Source of the DNA: Marsupella aquatica
Taxonomy: Eukaryota; Plantae; Marchantiophyta
Length of the DNA stretch: 64,000 nt
Direction: 5' to 3'
Assembly: GCA_973895155.1 (NCBI GenBank)
Contig: OZ316894.1
Coordinates: 15,864,699-15,928,698 of the forward strand
Positions 12,541-52,462 of this stretch are shown piece by piece (positions within the stretch are counted from its first letter, which is position 1; every line of letters begins with the position of its first letter). Made by a program: the position numbers and the translations under genes. Under the pieces are notes generated by a model. It was not told where the DNA came from. It saw only the letters and a program-made list of their open reading frames with translations, and did no database searches.

Positions 12541-13971
12541 CATGTCCTATTTCAAAGAAGTCATGAATCTAGCCACTTGAAACGGGCCTCACGTGCTTCA
12601 GAGCTGCACCCAGATCTTGTAATTTATCAACTTAAGAGGTGACTTAGCCTCTGGTCGGCTAGAGAAGATTGAGGTGGACCATACAGGGCAGTCTTCAGTG
12701 AGCATTTCGTAAGAATGCTGGCCGATTTCGTCTTCAAACAAGATCGAGAGTCTTGTAGGAACGAAGAAGAGCATAATACGGCAGAAGACATGTCCAGGCA
12801 CGAAATTTCCTAGCCCAGGCACGTTGACATGAAAGCGAAAGTGACTATGATTGGATACGTTACTGGTCTCTTTCGAAAGGGCCTCGACTTCTTCTGTTGC
12901 TCGATTGAATGCTATCGCGAATTGACAGGAACAGATTAATTCTGAGAATTCTTCGTCGAGAACCCATCAAGAAATAGCTATGAAACAAGATCAGAGATCT
13001 GTATTTTGAAAATTTAAAGTGGCAGGCAATAAGATTCTACGGCGAGCCGTCTCGTTTCGTGATTCGAAGGCTGCCGCCTGATTCGAGATCTTTTTGAGGT
13101 ACCGCACGTAAGTCTGTTGTCACGTTGCTCCACATTCAGCCAAGCTACTGTATCTTGATGATGTCGGAAACTTGCAAAGACTGCTTACTTAGAATACTTG
13201 TCTGCCATCAAGAAGTGCTTGTCAGCCGTCAAGAAGCCAAGGCACCAATTGCAGACCCAGCTACCAAGTTCAGCATGTGCTGCATTTAGTGCGTGACTCA
13301 GTGTGGATGTGATTGCTTGCCATCTCAAGGCCGAATTAGTCACACATTCTCAAAGAAACCTGTTGATTGTAGATTCATCTCGCAAAACTTTTCTTGTAGC
13401 TCTTCCGGGAGCTCTTGTCATTCTCGACAGTGGTTCTGGCTGAGAAGAAGCGAATACACCTGCTCTTCTAGTGCCGGAGCCTTCAGGCCGGAGCCATGGA
13501 CGTTCAATGACGGATTCTAGAACAATTTGGGGAAAGACTAGCCTTAAACCCAACCGATGACAGAATCATCATGGAAGTATAAAACCGTGAAAACTCCAAA
13601 AATTCTCAAGAAGTGTCTCTGCATTGCATTGGAGGCCGAGGAAGAGGATGTAAATAGCTCTTTTTTTTTGCCTTGAAAAATGTAAATAGCTCTTGACATT
13701 TTCTCCTGCAACTCTTCTCTCTTCTCATCCTCAGACGCGCAGCGAGTTTTGACACTACAACGTAGGAGGGACGTGACAGTAAGCCCTTTCTCACACTCAC
13801 CCGCGGACCGTGTCAAAATAGCTCCTCGGTTTGGTTACTGGTTTGGTTATTGGTTTGTAACCAAACCAAACCACTTTGACAACACCCTTGACTGGTTTAT
13901 AACCAAAGCACTTCGATAGCGCCCTTGATGTAGTTAACTGTAACTCTTGTATGGCACTTCAATAGCGCCCT

Positions 13972-37303: not shown

Positions 37304-40300
37304 CTTGGTGTCTCACACAGGGTGACTTCTTCAACTGCCTCGAACCTGAGTGATCCTCGAATCATGAAATTGCTGTATCATAATCATTCTGAACTCCATA
37401 TGTGCGGTTTCTCTAATTCGTTCTGCATCCATGGGACAAAGCAATATAATTCTTCTTTTTGACAACGGCTCGTCTAATTGATCTCCATGGTGTATTTACT
37501 GAAATATAGCGAACATCGTGCTCTTGTCATTTCCTCCGAGAGATCTCCATCCAATTATGTGTTCACTAGACTGATCCATTGAGCTGCCTTATTATCCCCC
37601 CTCTCTTTCCTCTCCTTCGTTAGAAAGAGAGATCGAGGGTTCCTTTCTTCACCACCTTCTCTGCCACCTCTTTCTTTAGATAGAGGGTGTCTCTTGGGCT
37701 TCAGAAGGCTCAGATTTTCACTATCCTCTCTAGACCTGACGGAGGCAGTTGGTTTTGGTTTTCCACTCTAGACGGAGTCCACTTTGTGACCCCATAAGTG
37801 GTTTACTCAGGAGCTTTACCAGCTTTTCAGTTCCCCGTCCACCCCCTATGTGGTTTACTTGGGAGCTTTACTAGCTTTTCAGTTCCCTTCCAAGAGGGTG
37901 TTAGTCTACCTGGCTACTTTTATGTTCCATTATTTCATAAAAAAATTAAGGATGAAATCCATGAATCCCCACAAAAAGCCGGACAACAGAAACAAGTAAT
38001 AACATTTGATCCCAAAACCTATGAGTCCCCTACTCAAGTAAGTGACCTGAGCAAGCATCTTTGCTTCTAGTTGTTTTTTGTTCCTTTGTTGTTGTGGGGG
38101 CCTAAACTTCTTGGCTTGTTGGGCCTCTTAGGTGAGTGTGCTCCCTGAGCAAGCAACTTGGTACCTCTAGCATATCCGACAATAACCTTCATACAAAGTC
38201 GCACTTGCTCCCTAATATGACCATCGCTTAACGGTCCTCACTGTTTACACAAGCAACTAGACACCTTGGTAAGTAACCTCATAGGATCTAGGAACTCCAA
38301 AACTAGTCTCTAGACTCAAGCTCAACAAAGATTGGTAAGTAAATCACTGAGTAGAACCTCTTGAGTTTGCATGGCCTTGCCATAAGCCGAAGCCAGACCT
38401 AACACCCATTGTTCTTACATAACAGCCCCTCTACAGGTTCTGCCCGTGCTTCCCCAATTCCTATTTGTTACTAGATGATTGTCTTGCCCCAAGGATACGC
38501 TCATGGCCCAAATAAGCTAGCTTGTCCCAAAGCTTGTCTTTAATGTTGGGACCAGTTGGCCCTGACTCTAGTAACCATCCCTAAGGTTCACCCAACTAAG
38601 AATCTAGGGGCCAACTGCACTTGGGCCTCAACACTCGTGTCTACTCTGCATTGTCTCCCCAACGCAAGCTCCCTTGGGAAATTGAACGCGGTTTGGCTGC
38701 TGCTTTGGCAGAATTTGGCAAGCGGGCAAGATAGCCCTCACAAACCTCGAGACTCAAAGGCACTCCAAGACCCAGCTAAGCTCAGAATGATGTACTCCTT
38801 CTCAAGAGCTTTCCAATGCATCCAAGAAGTCCTCCAATGGACTTCTCATTGAGAAATTATTGTCATTTTCGTTTGGTGTTTTGCCTTAGTGTTGCGACTG
38901 CTGCAATTCACAACTTGGGTTCGCCCTCCCCCAGGGAGACACCACTCCTATCATATATATTTATGGAGATCTTCCACCCTTGAACATGCTTTGGTCCCCT
39001 ATATGTAGCCCTCAACCTGGACTCCAACCTGCACGCATGGATATGCAACTAACTTGCTATATATGTTACGTAACTTTCTAGCTAGACGCCCATAAGTGGA
39101 ATGTCTTAGCCCATTGTGATTGGGCCAACCTAGTGCTCATGCCTAAGTAGGCCCTCAGAACCCGTTGTCAATTGGGGACCTAGACAGCCACACCTGGGCC
39201 GCGCCTTATCTCATGCGCCAAACATCCATAATTGCGCATGAAGTAAACTTCATTAGCATTGGGCCCAAGAGGAGCTCTCATTCAAGCCCTCAAAACTCCA
39301 AGTCCGTACGGGGGTCTGGACGGTCCACCATGAGCCCGGCCCTTCCCATGACCCAACCAGCTCCAAGCTAGTCTAAGTCCTTAGTGTGCGTCACCAGCTT
39401 AGCGCCTTGCCCTTGCTAGTGCAACACCTCATTGCCCACTAGTCTCCCCATACTTAGTCCCCACCGGATGTCCGTTCCAAAGGCATGGACCATAAAGGAG
39501 CTCGACATCAGAGTCAGCAACATTGGAGCTAAGTGTTAGGGTAATCAAGTTCCGCAACTCTTTTCCTCTTCCCTCCCTTTATTGGATTGTTTTGCCTTTG
39601 GGACCATGTCTCCTAGTTTGACATTTTTGTCTTTTGGCATTGTGATAAATAGATCAGTTCTAATCTGCTATATTACATGGGCTTGTCCCCTAGGGAAGCT
39701 GCGGCGCATCCTTAGTATGTTTTTGTGTTTGTGTGCCCCAGATGTAAACTGATCAGGGAAATCCCTCATGGTCACATTATTTGTCTAGTCCAAACTTCAG
39801 GCATGAAATCACTTTGTTTAGTCAAAAACATTAGTGGTGACTCACTCAAAGCTACCATTTGTTAATTAATTAAGGACTAAGTCTCTCTTAAAGCTATCAA
39901 TGTTAATTAGTGACTAGCAATAATAGTGCACAAGAACACTAGTAGACTAATACTAGTAGTGCATTGAATCTAAGCAACATTAGGGGAACACTAAGGATTG
40001 AGTATCATTAGGGTAATAGTAAGTTTTTCGGTGCATGGCAACACTATTTACGGACCCCCATTAGAGGTCCTTTCCAAAATTCCTGGCTCCACAGCGCGCC
40101 ACCTCATCATGGCACTCAGCAAACAAGAAGAGACTTGTTTTTGGATAAAATTAACTTCTACATTCGTGTTTGTGGCAACTTTGCTGTAAAAACTGGGACG
40201 CCATGCCGTAAAAAAGAATGTAAAAAAAACTAACATGCAAATCAAAAGACAAAAAAGTTGAGGTAAAACTGCTCCTAGTAACAGTTTTATTTTCATTTTG

Positions 40301-40891
40301 ATTTTATTCAAAACATAAAATTTCCCGACAACAAATTTTGATTTGACATTGCTGAGTCAAATCATAATAAAAACTCAGCATTGTCACCATTCGATAAGAA
40401 TTGAGTAAGTAATTTTGAAATATAGATTTTACCTGTGATTTCACAATCTCTAACGTGAATAGAAATCTTTGTTGTACAACCCCTGAAATGTTGACCCCTT
40501 TCATGAGAATGTAACTAAAATTAACAGATTTTATGAGTACTAAGGAGATTCTGAATTTTAGAATTTATTTAGCTTTTTAATGAACTTAACACCGATAGAT
40601 TTAGTTCTAAAAGTTGGTTTTGTATTTGATGTTAGTTATGGTTGCATTGGTAAGTTTGGCAACTATTTCAAGTGTCAAACATTGACTTGTCCATTTTTGA
40701 ATTTTGTTTTCTTTAGATTTGGAGGTCCATCTAGGCTCCAGTCTCTAGAATAACAGGGGGGTCCACGTATTAATTTTTTTGAGGGGAAAGGGCAAAGCCC
40801 AGAAACTTGGGTTCAACTATTGTGGCTGACTCTTTGCTTTCTGTTGGGTTTCATAGATTTCCCCTCTAAATTTAACAAAAAAAAAAATGAA

Positions 40892-40928
40892 AAGAAGAAG
40901 AAGAAGAAGAAGAAGAAGAAGAAGAAGA
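40892..40928. repeat. (AAG)n microsatellite
   Basis: About 12 AAG units following an A-run. Confidence 0.95.
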
Positions 40929-42072
40929 GTTGTTGCAGTACAGGTGCTCTGCAATTTGGATGAAACTGTAGTCTAGCTCAAGGGTTATTCGCTATTTAGA
41001 AAGATTCATACTCAGCGACCAGACAAGCAATTACCTGTTTGCTGTGTTACTTAGGGGTTGACATTTCTTCAATAGTGAAAGATTAAAAACCTATGTAATC
41101 CACGTGGTCAAGGCCCATGGTCATGCTCATTGCCCACTTAACAACTGACATAACTGATAAGTCATTTGTGTTAAAACAAATTCAATTCCACACTCAACTA
41201 TGTATTTTAGCAGCTGGCAATGTTAAGTTCTAGATCTCTAGATCTGACATCATATCTGCTAGTTCACTTAAGTAATAATGCAAATTCCTTCTCCTAGCAA
41301 CTCCTCATACTTCAAACAAAACTCCTACATTCCTATCCTGCTGATCCAATGAAATTGATGGTGCCCACTTGAAAAGAAACATGTACATTAGCTTGAGATG
41401 ACACCAAGAAGTCCACAAAGCTTTCCTCCTGCAGTTTTTGTTCTTGAGATGTGAACCGGGAGCCCTGAACCTCTTCCGTAGTTTAGGGTTTAACCTTGCA
41501 AAACCCGCTCCTTACCCCAAAGTAACATTTATTCTCTCGATTGAAAAATCTCCTTTCCACTATATGTACTCCTTATAAACAAACCAAAACACCATCCCAT
41601 TAGAAGATATAGTCAAGCACTGCCCGCCCCTGCTCCAACAGAAGGAAAAGAAAAACAAAAGGTATTCAACAAATAAAATATAGAAAATATTACAAAACCC
41701 AAAAGTATCCCACCCCATCGTGTCCTTTTTAATTTGCCGCATCAAAACACTGTGGCCCTCCACCACGACCCACCCCAATGGATAGAAAAACAAATAATAT
41801 ATAAACAGAGAAACTCACACGGGCATCACCACCGAGACAGGAAACAGGAAAACAGGAACCTGTACCATGAATGTTTTGAAGTTTTGAGCCCACATTTTAG
41901 CGAAAGGTAACACTTGATCGGGTTCCTTACAACAACTAAATGCAGTCACTTCTCCACCACATATACATAAACCATCGAGTGGGTCCCACCATACACTGGC
42001 TGCTGATACGAAACACACTCGAAATGTTACTTATCTTAAAAATATCATCGGAATCGGAACTGTATTCTATAA

Positions 42073-45000
42073 TATCGCTAGGTGCTAACAAAAAAACAAA
42101 CCAAGATTTCTAGCCCATTTAAATAAACTTCTTGCAAAAATACTTACTAGTGTAAGAGTTTAGATGAGAAGAATTTCCATTCCCAGAATGTTAAGAAACG
42201 GAAATTTTGGTGGCAAACACAAGTACTTTAAAGCATCCATCCGGCCCATGAAATGAAAGAGATTCACTCAGAACGGGACAAACTTATGCTAGCGCTGGGC
42301 GCTAGCCATATATATTAACCAAATGTGATCGTTGAAAAGAAATGAAACGTTGCACATGCGACAAATGAGGTTGGAGCCGTTCAACGTTACTAAATCTCTA
42401 GTCTATAAGTTTAGAGAATTCTGCCTAGCTAGAATGAGCCTCACCTCACCTACAGTCAAAATTGGCTGACTAGCCAAAGTTGAATCCACGACATCTAGTT
42501 TGAGGACGTTGGTATAAACCCAATATAGATGCTTGCAAGGCATGAAAGGCTGTCCATGAGAATGGTGACGATAGAAGTCCTCACAAGAACAGTAGGGGAA
42601 AATACAAATCTGCACCCAGTAAGTGTTTGTCGTACGAAGTTTCTCTTGGGTCTGGATCTGAAATTGTTTGCCCCAGGAGTTTCCGATTGAAACATCAAAC
42701 TGTTGAATCAGTGTCATCGGCTCCTTGTTTGCAGATTCAATTCTTTTGTTGTGTCCTTGTGAAAGATTTGAACGTGGGACTGTATTTTTACCATTCCTAC
42801 TCCGAAGGCGGATATTTGGCTCCAGGAGATTGATTTTCTCAGGGAAAACATTCACATTGATTCGCAAGTCAAATGGAGATGGAGGAGCCTGACGTCCGGC
42901 CTCTGGATTGATCGCAATCCCTTGCTGAGATAGGAATTGGACCTCAGCTTCCGAAAGATTTGTGCCCTTCAAAACGGGCAGGGTATGAGGAAACAGGGGA
43001 AGATTCACCACATTACGATGGGGCCGACTCTTATAGCATGCATTATTGGGACAGAACCAAATCATCTCAGGATGTGGTTCTCTCCTGAACATGCGGTATC
43101 CTTTGACAACAATGCCAACTACACCATCCGTTGACGGGTAACCAACCTTTTTCAGACGATTTCGACATTCATCTCGATCCGATTTACCACCAAGAGATCC
43201 ATTACATTGAGGCCCTGCACCATGTTTCGTCACTCTTCGCAGGTGCCAAGCACCTGGTCGCACATCTGTCTCCAACACAAATGAATCATGGACAACCCTT
43301 TGGAGGTTCGGAGGTGCACTATGCAGCGCTACAGAAGACCTTGTCACCCTCCTCCACGATGGAGTACTCCAATGACAGCCTTCTTTGATTTCGCTCTCCG
43401 ACAGATCCACAACGCCAATGTTATCGTGAACAGGTCCCTCTGCATTCGGGGAGAATTTGGTCTTGTTTAAGTTTTTCCTCTTCATGCCTCGAGTATTTGG
43501 TGATGTTACAAGAATAGTGTCATGCCGATGGGAGTCTTGTGCCGAGATGTTCCCAGAGGCTTGACCTTTCCTCTTCATAGACTTTGTTGTAACATCCCCA
43601 TTGAGTGGACCACTCCTTTCCAGGTCGAATTCAGCCGCACCGGAAAGAAGCATATTGGAAGCATCTTGGAAAAGTTTTGAAGAACCTGCCTGGTCCACCG
43701 AACGGAATGCCAATTCCCAAATTGTAGGTCCGGTTCCTCGGTGAAGACCTCTCTTATACGCCGTGTATGCTGCAACTTGTGAGACACCCCTGTTTTGGTC
43801 CATCTCACATGCTTCGAATAGGCCAGCCTTTTTCTTAGTTTGCCAAGCCTTCATTATGGAATGCGCCGCCTCTGAAGTAGTACAGTTAGGAATCATAGCG
43901 CTTTCCTCCACGCTTTTGTTCTGCATCCACCATAGGAGCAGAGTTTAGGAAATATGAATTAGCCACATGTACATAAAATCAATGACAGCGCCTGGCGCTA
44001 GCAACATTCAAACTAAAATTTTGTAAATTTAAGAAACAAGTGGTCCATTAATACTAGCATCGGGCGCTAGTATCAAAAACCAGATAATGATGAACAAAAC
44101 CTACGAGACCACACTAACTGAAAATAATGGTAGCGCCAAGCGCTAGTATGAGTTCGAGTGGTTACTGGATGTTGAAACTCACCAAACGAATGAAATTTCC
44201 CCATTGATGCCATCGGACCACCCACCACGCCAACCAACCTTGGAGCATTCAAAGCTTCCCTGGAACACAATTCCCAGATCTCCACCATACATCGATATCC
44301 CTTGAAATTCTGTACGCTCCAAGAAATGTGGACGCGTTCCTTAAAGAGTCCCACATCTTCCGATGCTCATCTCGTTTTTCTTCCAATACACCTTCAATCG
44401 AGTGACGATGAAACGATTGATAGAAGTGAAACGCATCCGATCGCTCCTTTTCTGGGTTAGGATGTCCTCCGAAAAACACATTCCGAACAGCATTCCATCC
44501 AGCTTGGGCATTGTCAGCCATGAATCCATGGATCACAACATTATCCAACCCATTTTCATGGCAAACCTCAATCATCAATTTCCAGGCTTTCTCTAAAGAC
44601 TCTGAATCTTTTGCTTTCAACTCACATGTGAAAATTGTGCAAAGAGCACGATAATTGTGATCATAAACATGTGCGCTAAAAGTTATCCAATATTTTGTCA
44701 TCCTCCTCATCACATCAAAACTGACCCATGCCCCTTCCAATGGACCTCCAGGCTGCATTTGGTGCAACAAATCAACTCCAGATCCGTGCCCTTTTACAGT
44801 CATTTTGAAAATATGTGGCCTATCCTCTTTACAGCCTTGACCTGGGAGCATGTAACGTTGTAGAAAGGGAAAGATTATGCATTTATGCATTTCAACAAGA
44901 AACTCCAACTCACCTTTGCCTTTTTGGTCTTGCCGAACGCTTCGAAAAAGAGATGCAAACTTTTGAGGGGTCGAAACTACCATTAACGACTCCCAAATTT

Positions 45001-48000
45001 CTCTTTCCTCCAATTCACCAATGTCATTGTTGGACACACAAAGAGCCTTCCTTAAAGATCCAGTTATAGCGTTCTTCAGACCCGATGGTGTGGCACACGG
45101 CGTAGCTTCATGTTGTTTCTTTATGAAGTTGTGAGCAATCTTTTCACCACCACGAGAAAAAACTTTTTGACTGGGATGAGCATGAGTTCCGACATGCACA
45201 GCAAGACGGGACATATGCTTACAAGTATCCTCGTCTAGAAGTAGTTGAGGGTACATATAAAAAAGCATTGCAGGACATGCTTCAGTACAAAAGGGTAATT
45301 GTTGGCAATAGTGACAAATTACGCCACCCTTGTCAATCATCTTTCCTACGGTATGTGGCCCCGCGAGTTTGGGTGTCCCATCCCAAGCTTTACAATTTCT
45401 TCATTTCTTCCACAAAAGATAATCACACTTCTGATTCTGACATTCTAGTGCTCCTGTGCACGTCACTTTACCAAATTCCCAGAACTTTTTTGGTTGTACA
45501 TTCGCAGAGGTTGGAAATATTCGAGTCCAGAAGTAGTAGTCTTTCGGCCGATCCATGTCACGGAGTCTTGAACCTTTTGAAAGAAGACCTTCTGCGGGAG
45601 GCAATTCAAATACAACGTTTCCATTGTATTTTCTTGGGAGGCAATTCACCTGCTCATGCCTGAAATCACATGTTCGGATGAATCGCGACAGTTCACTATG
45701 GCCAGTTGATTTGAGAATAGCATCCATCGCGCTTCGACGGTAGACAATACCTCCCGCAACACCCCCCACAACGTGTGTCTCCGCAACACCCCCCGCAACG
45801 TGTGTCTCGGAAGGAAACTGACCTTCCATCTTGACCAAAGTTCCCGGATTGGGCGATTTTTGCGAATGAATGGCAACATCCTCCTCATCACTATCGGAAA
45901 GGTGAATGACTGGAACCAGATGAATTTCATTCGTAACGGAATTATCTCGAAGATTGATATAGTATCTCTTCCCAGCGTTCAATTGCCAAAATCTGACTCC
46001 ATCGTCGATATCAAACAATGCGTCACCAGCCTCATCTCCAGAAGCATCAACAGGTTTGATGGAAAGAATGTCATTGATGCCAATGTCAAATCTTCTACAA
46101 AGATAGTTCTCACTAACCTGTTTGTATGTATCGAAAGAACCTAAAGGAATGCGTATAATCTCTCCAGTTCCAGAACGCAGAAGCACAACTGAATTAGACA
46201 TTGCGGAACAATAATCCCGAATTGACAAACAGAGAAAATGAGAGAATAGGAGAACATAACCCGACTTAAGTTAAGTTAATTTGTAACAAACTCCAGAAGA
46301 TTATCGTTTGTGAACGACAAAACGGGTACTAGTCGTAAAATGTAGAAACATAAATGTCGTTTATCATTTTGCCAACGTCACTACGTACTGGTAACATCAA
46401 TAATATAGTTTGAGAAACATGATCAGATATTTACTAGCGCCCGGCGCTACCATAAATAAGTCATGGAATTAAAACCTAAAAACCAAACTTCATATGCTAG
46501 CGCCAGGCGCTATCATTAATCCACTTCCATTTAAAGGTGAAAACTCTATTAATTTTATTGGAATAACAAAAATGTCAAAAGACATTGAGTTTGTTTGATA
46601 TAATTGTTGTTTATAGGAAATATACACGTATCAAATATAGTTAGCGCCCGGCGCTGACATAATTTCATGGCTGACATCAGTGTTAATGATGTTATTTTAG
46701 TGGTTTTTGAATGCTATGCCTGGCGCTAGTATCCAAAGGAATGACTTGTATTATCCCAACGGTTATATCTAACGGTAAAGTGCATGAACGTACTCATTGT
46801 TTCACGCTTTTTGTAGTTGACTTATTTAACAAAAGCCTACGGATCATCGCTCCTCCCTTACCCTAGTTAAAAAGAGGCGTTACATATACTCATTCTAAAC
46901 AGTATCGGCCACTTGTCCTTGTCATGATTGGTGAGTGAGATCCCTTTCTTCCGCATCGATCTACCTCCCATGATGTCAACCGCCCAAGTTTTAAAGGTTT
47001 CCTGCTTGTTCTTTTTGTACGGTAATTTGTTCAGAGCATGAGAATAGACACTGGCTCTGTGTCGTACAAGCACCTTCGCAAACTTTGGGGCTCCACGATG
47101 CAACCTTCAAGCGCTCCAAGCTCTCCAAGAGGGTATACCACGGTTCCGGAGGGAGATCAGGGTCATTGCAAGAGTACACAATCTTCATTCTCTGGGGCAT
47201 TCTATTCGCGTCGTGTTACAAGATCGAGCGGAGCGATTCCTTCGTCAAACATAACACTCCCAAGCCAGAAGGGGCAGAATGGAGATTGATGGCATGACCG
47301 ATTACGCTTTGGGAGAGGGCAACAAGGTAGGACTTGGAATGGATGAAGTCATCTCCAAACACATCATGTCGTTTGGGAAAGATTTCCGGGGGAATGAGAA
47401 GGAACCTCCACGGATTCCGCTTTATCGCCTGGTCCACATGGAGGTTGTTCGGACGTTACAGAAGGAGAATGCATCAATTGAGAAATTGAAAGACTCATTC
47501 CAAAGTAGTGGATACAATCCTAGGATAGGAATGCAGTTTTTTGTACAGCCGACTGATTCGGATGGTGTGGAGCAAATCTGCACTGAAGAGATCAGGGAGA
47601 GTTGGGATGCAATTTGGGTTGCTGAGAACGAGAAGTTTGAGCTGGAGTGCGAGGCAGATCCTGCCTTTATGATCTTGAAAGACAAAATGTTCTCAGTGTT
47701 CGACGGGAATCATCGACTTTACTCGTGGACGATGGTCACAAAGGAAAATCCCGACAACGTCAAGTATCATCCCAGAGTTCTCTGCACAATTTTCAAGGGT
47801 GACAAAGCTTTGCAAATTCAGATTGAGGCGGCTATGCACACTGTGAACCAGTACGTTTTTTGCCCTAACTTGTAATTAACGATTTCCGCAATACTTAGTT
47901 ATTACATAAATACAGTGTTTATGGAGTGTTTATAGAATAATATAGTGTTTATAGGCTAATTGAGTGTTTAAGTTAAGCTAGCGCCCGGCGCTAATAACTG

Positions 48001-50312
48001 AAAACCTGGCCTATTGCAGGTTAGGGCAGGCCGTTGTTGAACCGTCGTGGATCCTTGACGCAGACAGAATCCGGAGGATTCTTTCTCACGATCTAGAGCA
48101 CTACAAGTCTATCATTGACAGCGCCAATTATGCAAAGTTTGAGTATATCAAACAGAAGACTCAAAAACATTCTTGGTACACAAGAAAAATGCCTCTGGAA
48201 GCTCTAGTCTATATTTTATGCGAAAACAAAATTAAAGCTTACACTAACCAGTTCAAGATGGACATGGCACTGGCAGCAAGTCAAGGCAATCCTTGGTCGG
48301 CTGATGACATCACAAAGCGGCAATCGCTCATGTTGAAAGAGTCTACTAAAGATTGGTCCACGAAAACATCCAAAATCACTCCTCTTCTTAGTCCTGAGTT
48401 TGAAGATTTTCTAGGTACCTGTGCAGAGATGTATGTTTTGACAGAGAAAAACAAGCGAGAGAAAAAACCAGATTCGGTTGTTTGCACTATGGACCGTGCC
48501 AGACTCTTCACTGCAGTTTCGGCGCTTGATCCAAAATTGAGGTGTACATTGCTCGTTGCTCACTGTACTCCAGAGTTGAGAAAACAATTCTTCCACCCTT
48601 CGAGTGTGAACGATGATCCAGTGAAGCAGTACGTGGTGCCACACATGGCAAACATGGAATACCGTCGAGGGAATTGCAATTGGGATGCTACACTCGGCAA
48701 TTTCCACAGTGATTGAAACGCTACCGGTTGATAGGCTTGCCCAGTCAGGGTGTGACTCGGTAGAAAATCTGATTGAAGTAATTTCAAGTGAATTTCGAAG
48801 GTATGGGGATCTTGTGAAGGCAAAGTTCTTCAACACCATGTGGCCATCAAGATACCCTGATAAAGAGGTATATACCGAGAAAAATCAGAAGAGGGCCAAG
48901 AGGTATTTGTATCGTTTCTACATTTGAATGGAAATTCATTCCCCGGATGCTCTTTGGGCGTATCCAGCCGCATTTCACAAGTGGATTACTGTAAAGGAGG
49001 GAGATCTTGTTTGTGACTTATACTCGATGTATCCTGCCGAGGGTAAACTACCCCCAAGGGAAATGTCCGAGTGGGAAAGAATTCACTGCCCATGGTACCT
49101 TGACACAGACAAGTGGGATTCACCCTTTGATGAAGTGGAGAAGGATTGGTTTCTGAAACTTGCAAAGTCACAGATCCTTCCCAACATTGTTTCTGAGATG
49201 AAGCAAGGTCTCCTTAGCGACATTGATAAATCTTCTACGGAGTTACAGACAATCTGTGAGACAGTAGTTGTCCATGTAGATAGGAGCCGCAAGCCATGAG
49301 GGAAAGTTAAAATAGACACTGCAGTGCCAAGTGCCTCCACGCGATCCAGAAAGAAACGTAAGTTTTCAATCTTTTTTTCAAATGTTTGCTAGCGCCCGGC
49401 ACTGCCATTCTTGTGTTTCAATCTTCATCAGTGTTTGCTTGAAGGCCCTAATCCCACATTCTTTGCAATATGTTCATAGGTCAAAAGAAGTCAGATGCAG
49501 ATGGCATAGATGATACGAAGGTTACCCCAAAAGCTTCAAAAGCAAATACTGGCGCTTTGCCAGATCCACTTACACCAGTTAATTCTGGGAAATCGATTGT
49601 CCCAGTCGATGCAACCAGTACAAAAAAGAAAAGCAGAAGGACTCGAGATGTTGGACAATCAGAACGGGATTCTCAAGCTGTCACTGGGCTCCAACGTGAT
49701 GTTGGGGATTTTAAAGCCAAGTCGTCTCGTCATTGTTTCGTTGAGACCAGTGTCAGTGAACTTGTGGACAGTGTGTTTAATAAGGAGGAGAAGCCGGAAT
49801 GGGTAAATGATGCCGAAAAGTGGGGGAAAAACCTGATCAAATCTGGATGCCGGCTGAAAGGAGTGGTGAGGGGTGGGAAGCAAAGACCTTTTGGTGTTGA
49901 CGCTGGTTTTATTTACTTGCCAACTGGGCTAAAACCGACTTTGCTTGACAGAAAGGTCCCTAAATGGAACGTCCCCGACTGTACCCTACCCCGATCCTTT
50001 TTCCGGGCAATGGATCCTTTTTTGTCGGATGACGGAATTATTGCGATACTCCATACGAGGGAGTATGATCAAATTTCGCAGGTCATCTCCGCTTGTCAAG
50101 AGTCCAAGAAATTCCAGTGTCTATGTACACATAATGTCGTCATGGGGTTCCCAATGTACAAAGCGAAGTCTGATTTACAGGTAATTTTGTTGATCCTTTT
50201 GCTAGCGCCAGGCGCTATTCATATTATGTATTACTTTCTTTTTTTATTTGACCTTATTTCAGGTAAACTATTCAACGTGATTTTTTGGATTATTTGCTAG
50301 CGTCCGGCGCTA
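42073..50312. repeat. Dispersed 15-bp palindrome TAGCGCC-N-GGCGCTA, 12-13 copies
   Basis: Starts at 42073 (degenerate), 42290, 43986, 44055, 44131, 46435, 46498, 46642, 46714, 47979, 49390, 50203 and 50298. Perfect copies are at 46435, 46498, 47979 and 50203. Confidence 0.92.
42403..46201 (-). pseudogene. MULE-type DDE transposase with an N-terminal GCM/WRKY-like Zn domain and a C-terminal SWIM finger (~1178 aa reconstructed)
   Basis: Exons 44183-46201 and 42403-43920 (GT-AG intron 43921-44182), with in-frame TGA at 45401 and 44249. GCM-like CTGALECQNQKC...CHYC...CP...GTHAHP; catalytic WVSFD, GFMADNAQAGWNAV..F...DAFHFYQS and TTSEAAH; SWIM YWVQI...CSCEDF...PCKHLYWV. Confidence 0.8.
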
Positions 50313-50690
50313 TTGTAATCTGAGGGTCCTTCCTCTATTTTGTTCCCTTTTCAGGTATTCACTTTACGTTTGGATGTATTTTCGCGGATATCATCCAAGG
50401 TGAAAGTCCCAAAAGATCCTAAGTTCAAACCCCTTTCAAAAACAGAGGATCCTTCCATTACAAATCTGATTGGACTTCCCTTCGCGAAGGTTGATACAAC
50501 TCCAGAGCTTGAATTTGCCGGGAATGCCAGACTACATCCAGGATTCATGCAGTCTGTGTTGGAACTAATTACGTGTCCAAGAGATATTGTTCTGGATTGG
50601 GCTGTAGGTTCGGGGAGTACATTTGTTGCAGGTGATAATTGTGGTCAATTTGTAATTGGACTCGAGAATAGGAAGGAGTTTGGAGTTTGA
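47279..50690 (+). pseudogene. ParB/Srx-like domain fused to a beta-class N4/N6 DNA amino-methyltransferase-like domain
   Basis: Exons 47279-47850, 48020-49357, 49480-50180 and 50355-50690 (GT-AG, phase compatible), with a frameshift at ~48670 and TGA at 48927 and 49299. ParB-like: RIPLYRL...VR....SIEKLKDSFQSSGY and FSVFDGNHRL. MTase-like: VDAGFIYLPTG (motif IV position), FFRAMDPFLSDDGIIAI and LHPGFMQSVLELITCPRDIVLDWAVGSGSTFVAG..CGQFVIGLE (motifs X-I-II). Confidence 0.72.
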
Positions 50691-50700
50691 GCCAAGCAAA

Positions 50701-52462
50701 CATAACATTGATGTTATGCACATTGAAAAGAATATTTGTGAGAGTCTACTCAGATTCTTGTGTGGAGAGAAAGACACTGGTTCAGTGAGATCTTGAACAA
50801 AGGGGAATGAAACCCCATCTTTGGTTGAGGCCACATGCCCACAGAGCTGATGTGCTCTTGAAGTACCAAGCGCCCTATGTTATGACAGACACAGAGTGGG
50901 AACTATTTGTGCAGAGGTTGAGTTCTTTGAAGGTTCCTTCAAACTATGGCAGTGCTTTCAAGAAGCATATCATGACTAGAAAGCTTGGTAGTATGAAAAG
51001 CCATGACTACCATATGTTGATGCAACAGGTGTTGCCTTTATGCCTGAGGGGCCTGTTGCAGAAGCCTGTTCGTACTGTGATCATGCGACTCAGTGATGTG
51101 TTTCGTCGTATTTGTGTGAAGGTTTGGGATGAAACACACTTCCCACAACTGACAGAAGATGTCGCTCAGGTGCTGTGTGACCTGGAGATTTATTTTCCTC
51201 CCGCATTTTTTGATGTCATGACCCACCTACTTGTCCATGTTGTGGAAGAGCTACACCAATTTGGGCCTGTGAGTGCTCGTTGGTTGTACCCTTTGGAACG
51301 GTACATGGAGCTACTCAAAGGTCACGTGAGAACATATTACAAACCTGAAGCAAGCATGGCTAAAGGTTACATCAAGGATGAGACTCTGGGATTTCTGACC
51401 GAATACATAGCACAATATGAGCATGTGAAGACCAGGGTGTGGAATTCTGATGAGGAGGAAGGGGTGATAGGTGAAGTACTGGAAGGGGCTGCAACCACAA
51501 AGAACCTGACCATATCTATGAGAGACTTGGCACATGACTTTGTATTGCACAACACTGTGGTGATGGAACCCTGGATACAGTGAGTGCATACATGTGCTAT
51601 AATCCAGTTCATGAGCTTAAATGTTGTGTTCGTGTGGTTTTCTCCTTCAGCCTGTTCATGTTTACCCAAGCTAATGCTGTGTGGTTGTTCGTTCAGGGAG
51701 TATGAGTCATTGAAGGCGACCCATCCCACTGCAGGAACAACTTTTCCAGGTTTCATGGAGTGGATCAGAGTGGCAATTAGAGAGCATCACGAGACCCACC
51801 CAAACATGGATGCAGATGTTTACCTACTGTCTAATGCCCCTAGCCTGAAAGTGAAGACTTACAAACGGATGAGAGCATATGGGAATCACTTCCGAGTGAA
51901 GGATGGTGACAGTGCCTACAGGGTGACGAATGACTGCGGGCTCATCACTGTATTTGAGCAACAGAGCCACAATCACGACAGGGCCTGGATGGAGATGGGA
52001 TATGTGGGAGAATTAGTTGACATATGGGCTCTGGACTATGGGGCGGTGTCCAGTCCTGTGATTCTTATGAAAGGTTCATGGGTGCGGCAGGATTGGCTTG
52101 GTAACAGGGCTACCATGAAGAGAGACAACGACGGTTTCTTGCTGGCCAATTTCAGAGGGAAATTGCCCGAATGGTCTGAGCCATTTGTGTTTCCTAGTCA
52201 GGTGGAGCAAGCTTTCTTCCTGGATGTGGAAGACTCCCCAGGTTGGCGTGTAGTGTGTCATAAACAGGCCAGGCAACGTCGGATGGAAGGATCAAACCTT
52301 GAGTTTCATTTACACTCTCATAGTGCCTTTGATCGTCGGCGTTCAGACCAAGTGCCTGTAGTTCATGATAGCGGGGACTTCATTCTTGTGACAAGGGTAG
52401 ATGCATTTGCTGAAGGAGGCAAATTCAGAGATGCAGATGCCAACAGTGTGCCTGTGCCATGA
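50701..52462 (+). pseudogene. 5'-truncated CACTA/EnSpm TnpD transposase (DUF4218 and DUF4216 regions)
   Basis: HNIDVMHIEKN at 50701; KSHDYHMLMQQ.LP; FPPAFFDVMTHLLVH..GPV..RW.YP.ERYM..LK..VR...PEASMAKGY; intron 51580-51696; YVG.L.DIW.LDY...EPFVFPSQVEQAFF. Frameshift at ~50790. Confidence 0.92.

Follow-up and report, generated by a model that had tools for sequence, protein, structure and literature searches.

What are the copies of a 15-bp palindrome, TAGCGCC-N-GGCGCTA (TAGCGCCNGGCGCTA), doing in the introns and spacers of a transposon of the liverwort Marsupella aquatica? The stretch examined was 64 kb of contig OZ316894.1 (GenBank assembly GCA_973895155.1, positions 15,864,699 to 15,928,698 of the forward strand), referred to below as the window. 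It holds one copy of a two-gene DNA transposon, with a putative transposase gene on the minus strand and a divergent accessory gene on the plus strand. The explanation that we place first, and hold with about even confidence, is that the palindromes form an array of binding sites for a dimeric, sequence-specific protein encoded by the element, by which the transposon would find its own copies.

Four exact matches to the palindrome were found in the window (46435, 46498, 47979 and 50203), against 0.00 expected from 100 shuffles. At up to three mismatches there were 13 matches against 0.42 expected for the whole window, a count reached by 0 of the 100 shuffles, and 12 of the 13 fell inside 42073-50312. 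The other match, at 39400 (three mismatches, left half only), lies outside the element, may be chance and was set aside. The half-site TAGCGCC was found 20 times in the window (1.84 expected) and exposed a further, degenerate palindrome at 46714-46728. Half-sites at 13917, 13963 and 37035 were outside the element and were treated as chance or unrelated. Two TAGCGCCCTT half-sites, 46 nt apart at 13917-13969, sit in an unrelated direct repeat; they are non-palindromic and no part of the element.

All 13 palindromes of the element lie in its 2205 non-coding bases, which make up 25% of 8866 (P about 1.4e-8). The GC content of this non-coding DNA is 0.38 vs 0.45 in the exons. Their placement agreed with the initial annotation. 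Two stand behind the transposase stop on the minus strand (42073..42087, three mismatches; 42290..42304, one mismatch). Three more, also on the minus strand, are in the transposase intron (43986..44000, with one mismatch, at position 1, that is common to the family; 44055..44069, two mismatches; 44131..44145, one mismatch). The remaining palindromes are on the plus strand, four of them in the intergenic region (46435..46449 and 46498..46512, both exact; 46642..46656, one mismatch; 46714..46728, with an exact right half and a left half shifted by a 1-base deletion). Three introns of the accessory gene hold one (47979..47993, exact), one (49390..49404, two mismatches) and two (50203..50217, exact; 50298..50312, one mismatch). 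No palindrome with up to two mismatches was found in exons or outside the element in the 64-kb window, so that the earlier observation of no full copy in exons or elsewhere held, "elsewhere" being the other 55 kb of the window. The statement that every intron carries a copy stood for the transposase intron and for these three accessory introns; a possible fourth accessory intron of 66 nt is without a palindrome, which would make it four introns of five.

Other copies of the family were compared using Logan contigs of four coded runs (X1, X3, X5 and X6), which were aligned to the window. Over 43930-44190 (261 nt; 45 core and 216 flanking nt), 18 substitution rows and 3 indel rows were obtained at a share of at least 15%, and four of the substitutions fell in the 45 core positions. 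Three of these four restore decayed positions of the window copy to the perfect palindrome: 44059 A>G (X1 933/1446, X3 1506/2020, X5 108/115), 44060 T>C (X1 1446/1446, X3 1371/2020, X5 108/115) and 44139 A>G (X3 5681/6953, X5 108/108). The palindrome at 44055..44069 is perfect in most X1, X3 and X5 contigs, and that at 44131..44145 in X3 and X5. A C inserted behind 46717 realigns the fourth intergenic copy to a full 15-mer with one mismatch; this insertion was present in all of the depth of X1 and X3 (1 and 2 contigs), in half of X6 and in little of X5. Only 4 of the 13 palindromes in the window are exact, and C>T or G>A changes account for 8 of the 12 single mismatches. In our reading the common form of the family would have had perfect palindromes, which dead, probably methylated copies lose by C>T decay. 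Conservation among family copies, on which the initial annotation had made its proposal depend, was thus found in the direction of the core changes, with an exception at 47988 that is weighed below. Joints between palindromes in X3 (44073>46433 and 46519>46634, with sides of 21-30 nt) may be alignment artefacts and were not used.

A more distant comparison was provided by L001, a metagenome relative whose transposase is 66% identical to that of the window. Its homologous intron contains three copies of ATTGCTAGCGCC-GGCGCTAGCAAT (TAGCGCC-GGCGCTA), in which the half-sites are the same and the central base is absent. Two of the cores have a single mismatch and the third is exact, and each lies inside a palindrome of 22-24 nt. 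With the cores removed, the introns of the window and L001 gave a local score of 15 vs 13.5 +/- 2.3 for shuffled sequences, that is, no likeness; with the cores included, the score was 22 vs 12.8 +/- 2.2. Both arms keep their sequence between the two elements, with no compensatory changes, and the central position is not fixed: it is C, A or T in the window, and L001 lacks it. Sequence-conserved arms around a free centre fit a sequence-specific reading of two half-sites. The comparison gives clean evidence of selection: the palindrome has persisted in a relative while the remainder of the intron was randomised. The palindrome is specific to the element within the window, is confined to non-coding DNA and is conserved in the family and in a distant relative, and is therefore best taken as a functional cis element, as the initial annotation had suggested.

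At about 1168-1236 of L001 the second motif copy centres a near-perfect palindrome of ~60 nt, far beyond the shared 22-24 nt, and palindromes may grow there by a DNA-level process. Growth of this kind would suit a view in which the palindromes are functionless and owe their spread to slippage, to replication prone to hairpins or to the insertion of a tiny palindrome. We consider that view very improbable, given the three palindromes kept in the homologous intron of two elements whose introns cannot otherwise be aligned, and the lack of any in coding DNA or in the other 55 kb of the window.

Is the palindrome read as DNA or as RNA? When the 13 palindromes were oriented by the nearest gene, position -1 was C in 10 and position +1 was G in only 3; positions +3 and +4 were A and T in 11; the centre was C in 7, A in 3, T in 3 and G in 0. 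By leave-one-out scoring, 12 of the 13 follow the sense strand of the nearest gene. An unsupervised orientation search agreed for 9 of 13 and did not recover the gene-side labelling; the leave-one-out result was used. Because the genes are divergent, this polarity could mean either that the palindromes are tied to transcription or that the two arms of the element mirror each other. A role in RNA, in which pre-mRNA hairpins, or duplexes between palindromes, would assist or control splicing, or would supply small-RNA pathways or escape them, finds a basis in the sense-strand polarity, in the centre without G on that strand and in the folding of the transposase intron (-72.1 vs -57.1 +/- 4.6 kcal/mol for shuffles, z -3.27). 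In the predicted fold palindromes 1 and 3 pair together and palindrome 2 is a hairpin; hairpins of single palindromes gave -8.4 to -13.8 kcal/mol. We nevertheless regard an RNA role as distinctly unlikely. Any palindrome folds well, which makes the z-score non-discriminating, and since the genes diverge, polarity cannot be separated from the arm of the element in which a palindrome lies. The arms are conserved between the window and L001 in their sequence, and not merely in their pairing. A splicing role is also not obvious for the four intergenic palindromes and the two behind the transposase stop.

If instead a protein of the element binds the palindromes, the candidates are the transposase and the accessory protein, and they were compared through their relatives. 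Relatives of the transposase numbered 28 among longer proteins, and 94 metagenome stretches encode one, of which 80 were retained as loci. None of these 80 has the palindrome with its central N. In eight relatives at ~30% identity the intron at the corresponding site measures about 85-130 nt and contains no repeated palindrome, and no homologue of accessory exon 1 was found in those eight at E 1e-3, in a search limited by short contigs. Homologues of accessory exon 1 were found in L028/L029 and L043, all of them pseudogenes on the strand opposite the transposase. Near these pseudogenes another inverted repeat, TCAACTTTTGG-N4-GAAAGTTGA, recurs in 51-nt tandem arrays (L028 1349-1502 and 4876-5440; L043 2164-2570). 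L028 and L043 are related and were counted as one extra lineage. A loose scan for inverted-repeat arrays was passed by 28 of 81 sources, mostly with AT-rich chance groups, and only the L028/L029 and L043 arrays were used. A single half-site of the TCAACTTTTGG-N4-GAAAGTTGA repeat was also seen in the homologous intron 1 of both L028 and L043. Several distant relatives (L007, L024, L046 and L052) have short direct-repeat arrays of their own in non-coding DNA; in L052, for instance, AATCTGGTCCA occurs 8 times, and L046 has repeats of the GTTTAGCCAAA type.

The transposase might read the palindromes with its Cys/His-rich N-terminal finger, for transpososome assembly or for transcription of cognate copies. 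The polarity of the palindromes is opposite in the two halves of the element, with the flip between 44131 and 46435, and the subterminal transposase sites of Ac and En/Spm have the same opposite-polarity arrangement. L001, the one relative shown to share the palindrome, was found through its transposase. A 2026 preprint reports sequence-specific activation of cognate copies by the AtMu1 transposase (10.64898/2026.08.24.746577). Even so, the transposase is an unlikely reader in our judgement: the eight relatives at ~30% identity are without palindromes in the homologous intron, and only sublineages that have the accessory gene showed inverted-repeat arrays. As the left edge of the element is approximate and its right end is missing, a terminal concentration of sites cannot be judged here. 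The accessory protein, with a DGNHR ParB/Srx-like front and a PF01555-like end, is favoured as reader because of the pattern among relatives with and without its gene and because of precedent; we put this forward as a tentative assignment.

The element itself spans 41817..50682, with an approximate left edge and a right edge formed by an abrupt junction with CACTA/TNP2-like sequence. In X1, contig depth rises from 103 to 1210 at about 41817. Loose contig ends lie at 50682, and contigs of all four runs indicate a very high-copy family starting near 41817. Self-BLAST of the window gave motif matches only and revealed no inverted partner for the left end. The in-frame stops, the indels, the abrupt right end at about 50682 and the lack of a left-end partner in the window identify this as a dead, truncated copy of a high-copy two-gene DNA transposon. 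The adjoining CACTA/TNP2-like transposase fragment (50690-52462 and beyond; DUF4218 E 4e-28, DUF4216 E 1.2e-4), next to the cut accessory gene, has an X1 contig depth of 49686 vs about 3400 for the element. An (AAG)n microsatellite with an A-run lies at 40874-40927, about 900 nt left of the left edge.

Putative exon 1 of the transposase (44183..46201, minus strand) is covered in one frame by the relatives P0001, P0002 and P0004, which align over 46201-44174 at 45-46% identity, and has in-frame stops at 45398-45400 and 44246-44248. It also contains a 27-nt tandem duplication at 45754-45807 (96% alike), the unit number of which differs among family copies, as seen from joints that go back 52/54 in X3, X5 and X6. 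The intron with three palindromes (43921..44182, minus strand, 262 nt, GTGAGT..GCAG) is at a position conserved in all relatives. Putative exon 2 (42403..43920, minus strand), with a SWIM-like CxC..CxH near its C-terminus, was defined from the open reading frame (ORF) list and from tblastn, with matches to L001, L005, L006, L024 and others; P0005 aligns over 43944-42442. An alignment of the transposase (A1) shows a Cys/His-rich N-terminal region and D..D..CxxH motifs, and P0005, the sole intron-less relative, has a C-terminal CxC..CxH. Pfam models of MULE, SWIM, GCM, FAR1, WRKY and KDZ were unmatched at E up to 10 in the window exons and five homologues, the one exception being SWIM at E 0.17 in P0005, and no meaningful match came from searching PDB with a profile of the transposase alignment. 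The GCM domain proposed in the initial annotation was therefore not recovered. Mutator (MULE) elements are marked by long terminal inverted repeats and a 9-bp target duplication. D..D..CxxH and CxC..CxH patterns are visible in this putative transposase, which was assigned to no superfamily. P0001-P0028 and P0061-P0066 end a few residues past conserved intron sites (QWG.. and AMH..N), and are therefore exon read-throughs on eukaryotic contigs and not whole proteins.

Between the genes lies the divergent intergenic region (46202..47037, right edge approximate) with its four palindromes, followed on the plus strand by the accessory gene. Exon 1 (47038..47850, with an approximate start near 47038-47113) encodes an invariant FDGNHRL and has an 8-bp deletion at 47266 vs other family copies; P0061 aligns to it over 47113-47256 in frame +1 and then from 47261 in frame +2. 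Intron 1 (47851..48019, 169 nt, GT..AG) holds one exact palindrome, and the ORFs of homologues end there. Exon 2 (48020..48902) has a 4-bp insertion near 48629 vs most family copies. The possible palindrome-free intron (48903..48968, 66 nt, GT..AG) is in frame and would remove a stop at 48925-48927. Exon 3 (48969..49357) has an in-frame stop at 49297-49299 and is followed by a 122-nt intron (49358..49479) with one palindrome (two mismatches), by exon 4 (49480..50180), which gave weak methyltransferase-like leads only, and by a 174-nt intron (50181..50354) with two palindromes. The junction truncates exon 5 (50355..50682), which includes a PF01555 motif-I region. Joints in X3 near intron edges (47852>48017 and 50187>50348) lie off the GT..AG borders and were left out of the splicing evidence.

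What kind of protein would this gene have encoded? Exon 1 has six relatives (P0061-P0066) at 43-73% identity, the ORFs of which all end just past AMH(T/S/E)xN, where they share an intron site. All 7 sequences of the alignment (A2) have FDGNHRL without variation, and it is recognisable in the L028 and L043 pseudogenes. Proteins of the ParB/Srx superfamily have a conserved DGxHR-type motif on a core strand-turn-helix. Weak matches of exon 1 pointed the same way: phrog_1033 "ParB-like" in 3 of 7 members (best E 0.054), TIGR03187 DGQHR at E 0.07, and Atlas clusters with ParB_N on 11% of members (0.92) and DUF3723 on 31% (0.95). Exon 1 and the seven A2 members gave no Pfam match at E up to 10, exon 1 gave no PDB match at E up to 10, profile search included, and none was obtained against longer proteins. 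A significant profile match to ParB_N (PF02195 and clan) was not obtained for the accessory protein. A pattern scan of genome contigs with A2 gave 9 pattern matches, none confirmed, and no prokaryotic relative; tblastn of exon 1 against phages gave one chance-level match (E 4). No GERRxR CTP box or parS-reading helix-turn-helix was seen by eye in accessory exons 1-3. Two AlphaFold2 runs on exon 1, using the 7-sequence alignment, had a mean pLDDT of 43.8 and 47.6, too poor for a fold search. Of the "ParB domain" in the initial annotation, the invariant DGNHR motif and the weak ParB-like matches remain, and a Pfam or PDB match does not.

The "methylase" half of the earlier label fared similarly. 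Exon 5 matched PF01555 (N6/N4 DNA methylase) at E 1.1e-5, with 26.0 bits vs a cut-off of 26.7, over 46 residues (model positions 170-215 of 221). In this stretch DIVLDWAVGSGSTFVAG aligns to the SAM-binding motif-I part of PF01555 and of NF010253 (E 1e-4). The candidate place of the catalytic (D/N/S)PP(Y/F) motif IV reads YLPT by eye, in a pseudogene copy. The motif-I stretch thus supports the label, and the sub-threshold score and the lack of a recognised DPPY-type catalytic motif do not. No family match was found for exon 4 at E up to 5, and none by tblastn for exons 2-5 among the 80 loci.

A methylase-like end raises the possibility that the palindrome is itself a modification target, either of this enzyme or of host cytosine methylation, or that it is a borrowed site of a host transcription factor. 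Besides the PF01555 motif-I region, the palindrome has two CpG and a central CCNGG, and the 8 of 12 mismatches that are C>T or G>A are as expected of methylated cytosines in a silenced copy. We give this only a slight probability. Fifteen bases are long for a methylase site, no DPPY-type motif was recognised (the aligned YLPT was identified by eye and comes from a dead copy), and the decay would show that the host methylates the palindrome, not that the palindrome exists for that. The palindrome is not known to match any plant transcription-factor site, no motif library having been searched.

We return to binding by a dimeric protein of the element. Conserved half-sites, a free centre, restriction to non-coding DNA, occurrence in spacers that look untranscribed as well as in introns and a different inverted repeat in a sister lineage all fit sites of such a dimer. 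Sites would be placed in every class of the non-coding DNA of the element, and a dimer reading the two half-sites would thereby locate copies of its own element. Its binding could keep the element genes expressed or mark their DNA against host silencing, as VANC does for VANDAL21. Several observations weigh against this. The half-sites are separated by 1 base in the window and by none in L001, so that a rigid dimer would have had to co-evolve with this spacing. L001 consists of the 3' part of transposase exon 1, the intron and part of exon 2, so that any accessory gene would lie outside it. The assignment of accessory exon 1 to ParB/Srx is weak, and no helix-turn-helix was detected in the accessory protein. 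The 12 of 13 sense-strand polarity fits an RNA role too. Among family copies, 43988 G>A degrades a palindrome in a single X6 contig and one minor X3 contig, and 47988 G>A spoils the intron-1 palindrome in X5 (98/98), X3 (3568/7727) and X1 (857/2100). In the 216 flanking nt X5 and the window are separated by 14 substitutions and 3 indels, and the divergence of X5 in the cores (3/45 nt) is not lower than in the flanks (17/216). What argues for selection among family copies is therefore the direction of the changes and not their number.

A bolder extension of the idea, which we consider unlikely, is that a phage-type two-domain protein (a ParB/Srx-like front and an N6/N4 methylase end) was taken up by a eukaryotic transposon, where it would nucleate on palindromes seeded in every intron and spacer, mark the element as "self" and so escape silencing. 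Together with the PAG genes of red algae it would then represent a widespread self-recognition module.

Self-recognition motifs in transposon non-coding DNA are known; new here are the dispersed palindrome at one to four per segment, the apparent fusion of ParB-like and methylase parts, this transposase family and a plant-like host. To our knowledge, few transposons recognise their own copies through a dedicated protein and motif, and VANDAL/VANC is the only case worked out experimentally. ParB-like self-recognition has so far only been proposed, from red-algal genomes, and the window adds a case with a different transposase family and, to judge from the CACTA-type sequence beside it, in a plant-like genome. 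It comes with informative natural variation, in that the spacer has 1 base in the window vs 0 in L001 and the sister lineage has another inverted repeat. The palindrome is a short, defined DNA probe with two candidate reader proteins for a direct binding test, and the system offers a way to ask whether such modules counteract host silencing.

How does the arrangement compare with known systems? In bacterial ParB-parS, KorB and Noc, a dimer whose N-terminal domain is of ParB/Srx type reads several palindromic sites, each 14-16 bp long. The multi-copy 15-bp palindrome is of similar length; the accessory protein, in a eukaryotic host, differs in having DGNHR and not the GERRxR CTP-binding box, and in having no significant ParB_N match. 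In Ac/Ds, En/Spm and MuDR, subterminal transposase repeats cluster within a few hundred bases of the termini. The present element shares with them the many short motif copies of opposite polarity in its two halves, whereas its palindromes run through the whole body, including the introns of both genes.

Closer in gene content are accessory genes of red-algal transposons. In Plavaka and other transposons of red algae, PAG3 combines a ParB-like domain with a 2OG oxygenase and stands beside inverted-repeat arrays, PAG2 combines a PF01555 methylase with SET, and the authors propose that the PAG3 protein binds and modifies its own element (10.1101/2025.02.11.637652). Here too a eukaryotic DNA transposon has a weak ParB-like front and a PF01555 domain among its accessory functions, the likeness of PAG3 to accessory exon 1 being by description only. 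The two parts appear to be in one gene here, unlike PAG3 and PAG2, which are two genes with other partner domains. The palindromes occur at one to four per non-coding segment and not in tandem arrays as beside PAG3, and the transposase differs. In the accessible parts of the literature searched, only this Bostrychia preprint (10.1101/2025.02.11.637652) ties ParB-like accessory genes of eukaryotic transposons to inverted repeats, and nothing was found on palindromes seeded in introns.

Closest in layout is VANDAL21, a Mutator-like element of Arabidopsis. VANC21 binds a 9-mer, YAGTATTAY, that clusters in the introns, the intergenic DNA and the terminal non-coding DNA of VANDAL21 (PMC5735166), and both motif binding and loss of methylation were shown by experiment (PMC5735166; PMC10398659). 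The initial annotation called an element-wide intronic distribution unusual; this was overstated, the VANC21 motif being distributed in exactly that way (PMC5735166). The likeness of our element to VANDAL21 is at the motif level and is known from sequence alone. Both are multi-gene DNA transposons with a short element-specific motif in introns, intergenic and terminal non-coding DNA. As with the VANC21 motif, copies have one polarity and are rare elsewhere (here, in the other 55 kb of the window), and motif and family diversify together. The VANC motif is a non-palindromic 9-mer in tandem repeats, whereas the motif here is a 15-bp palindrome in mostly single, dispersed copies.

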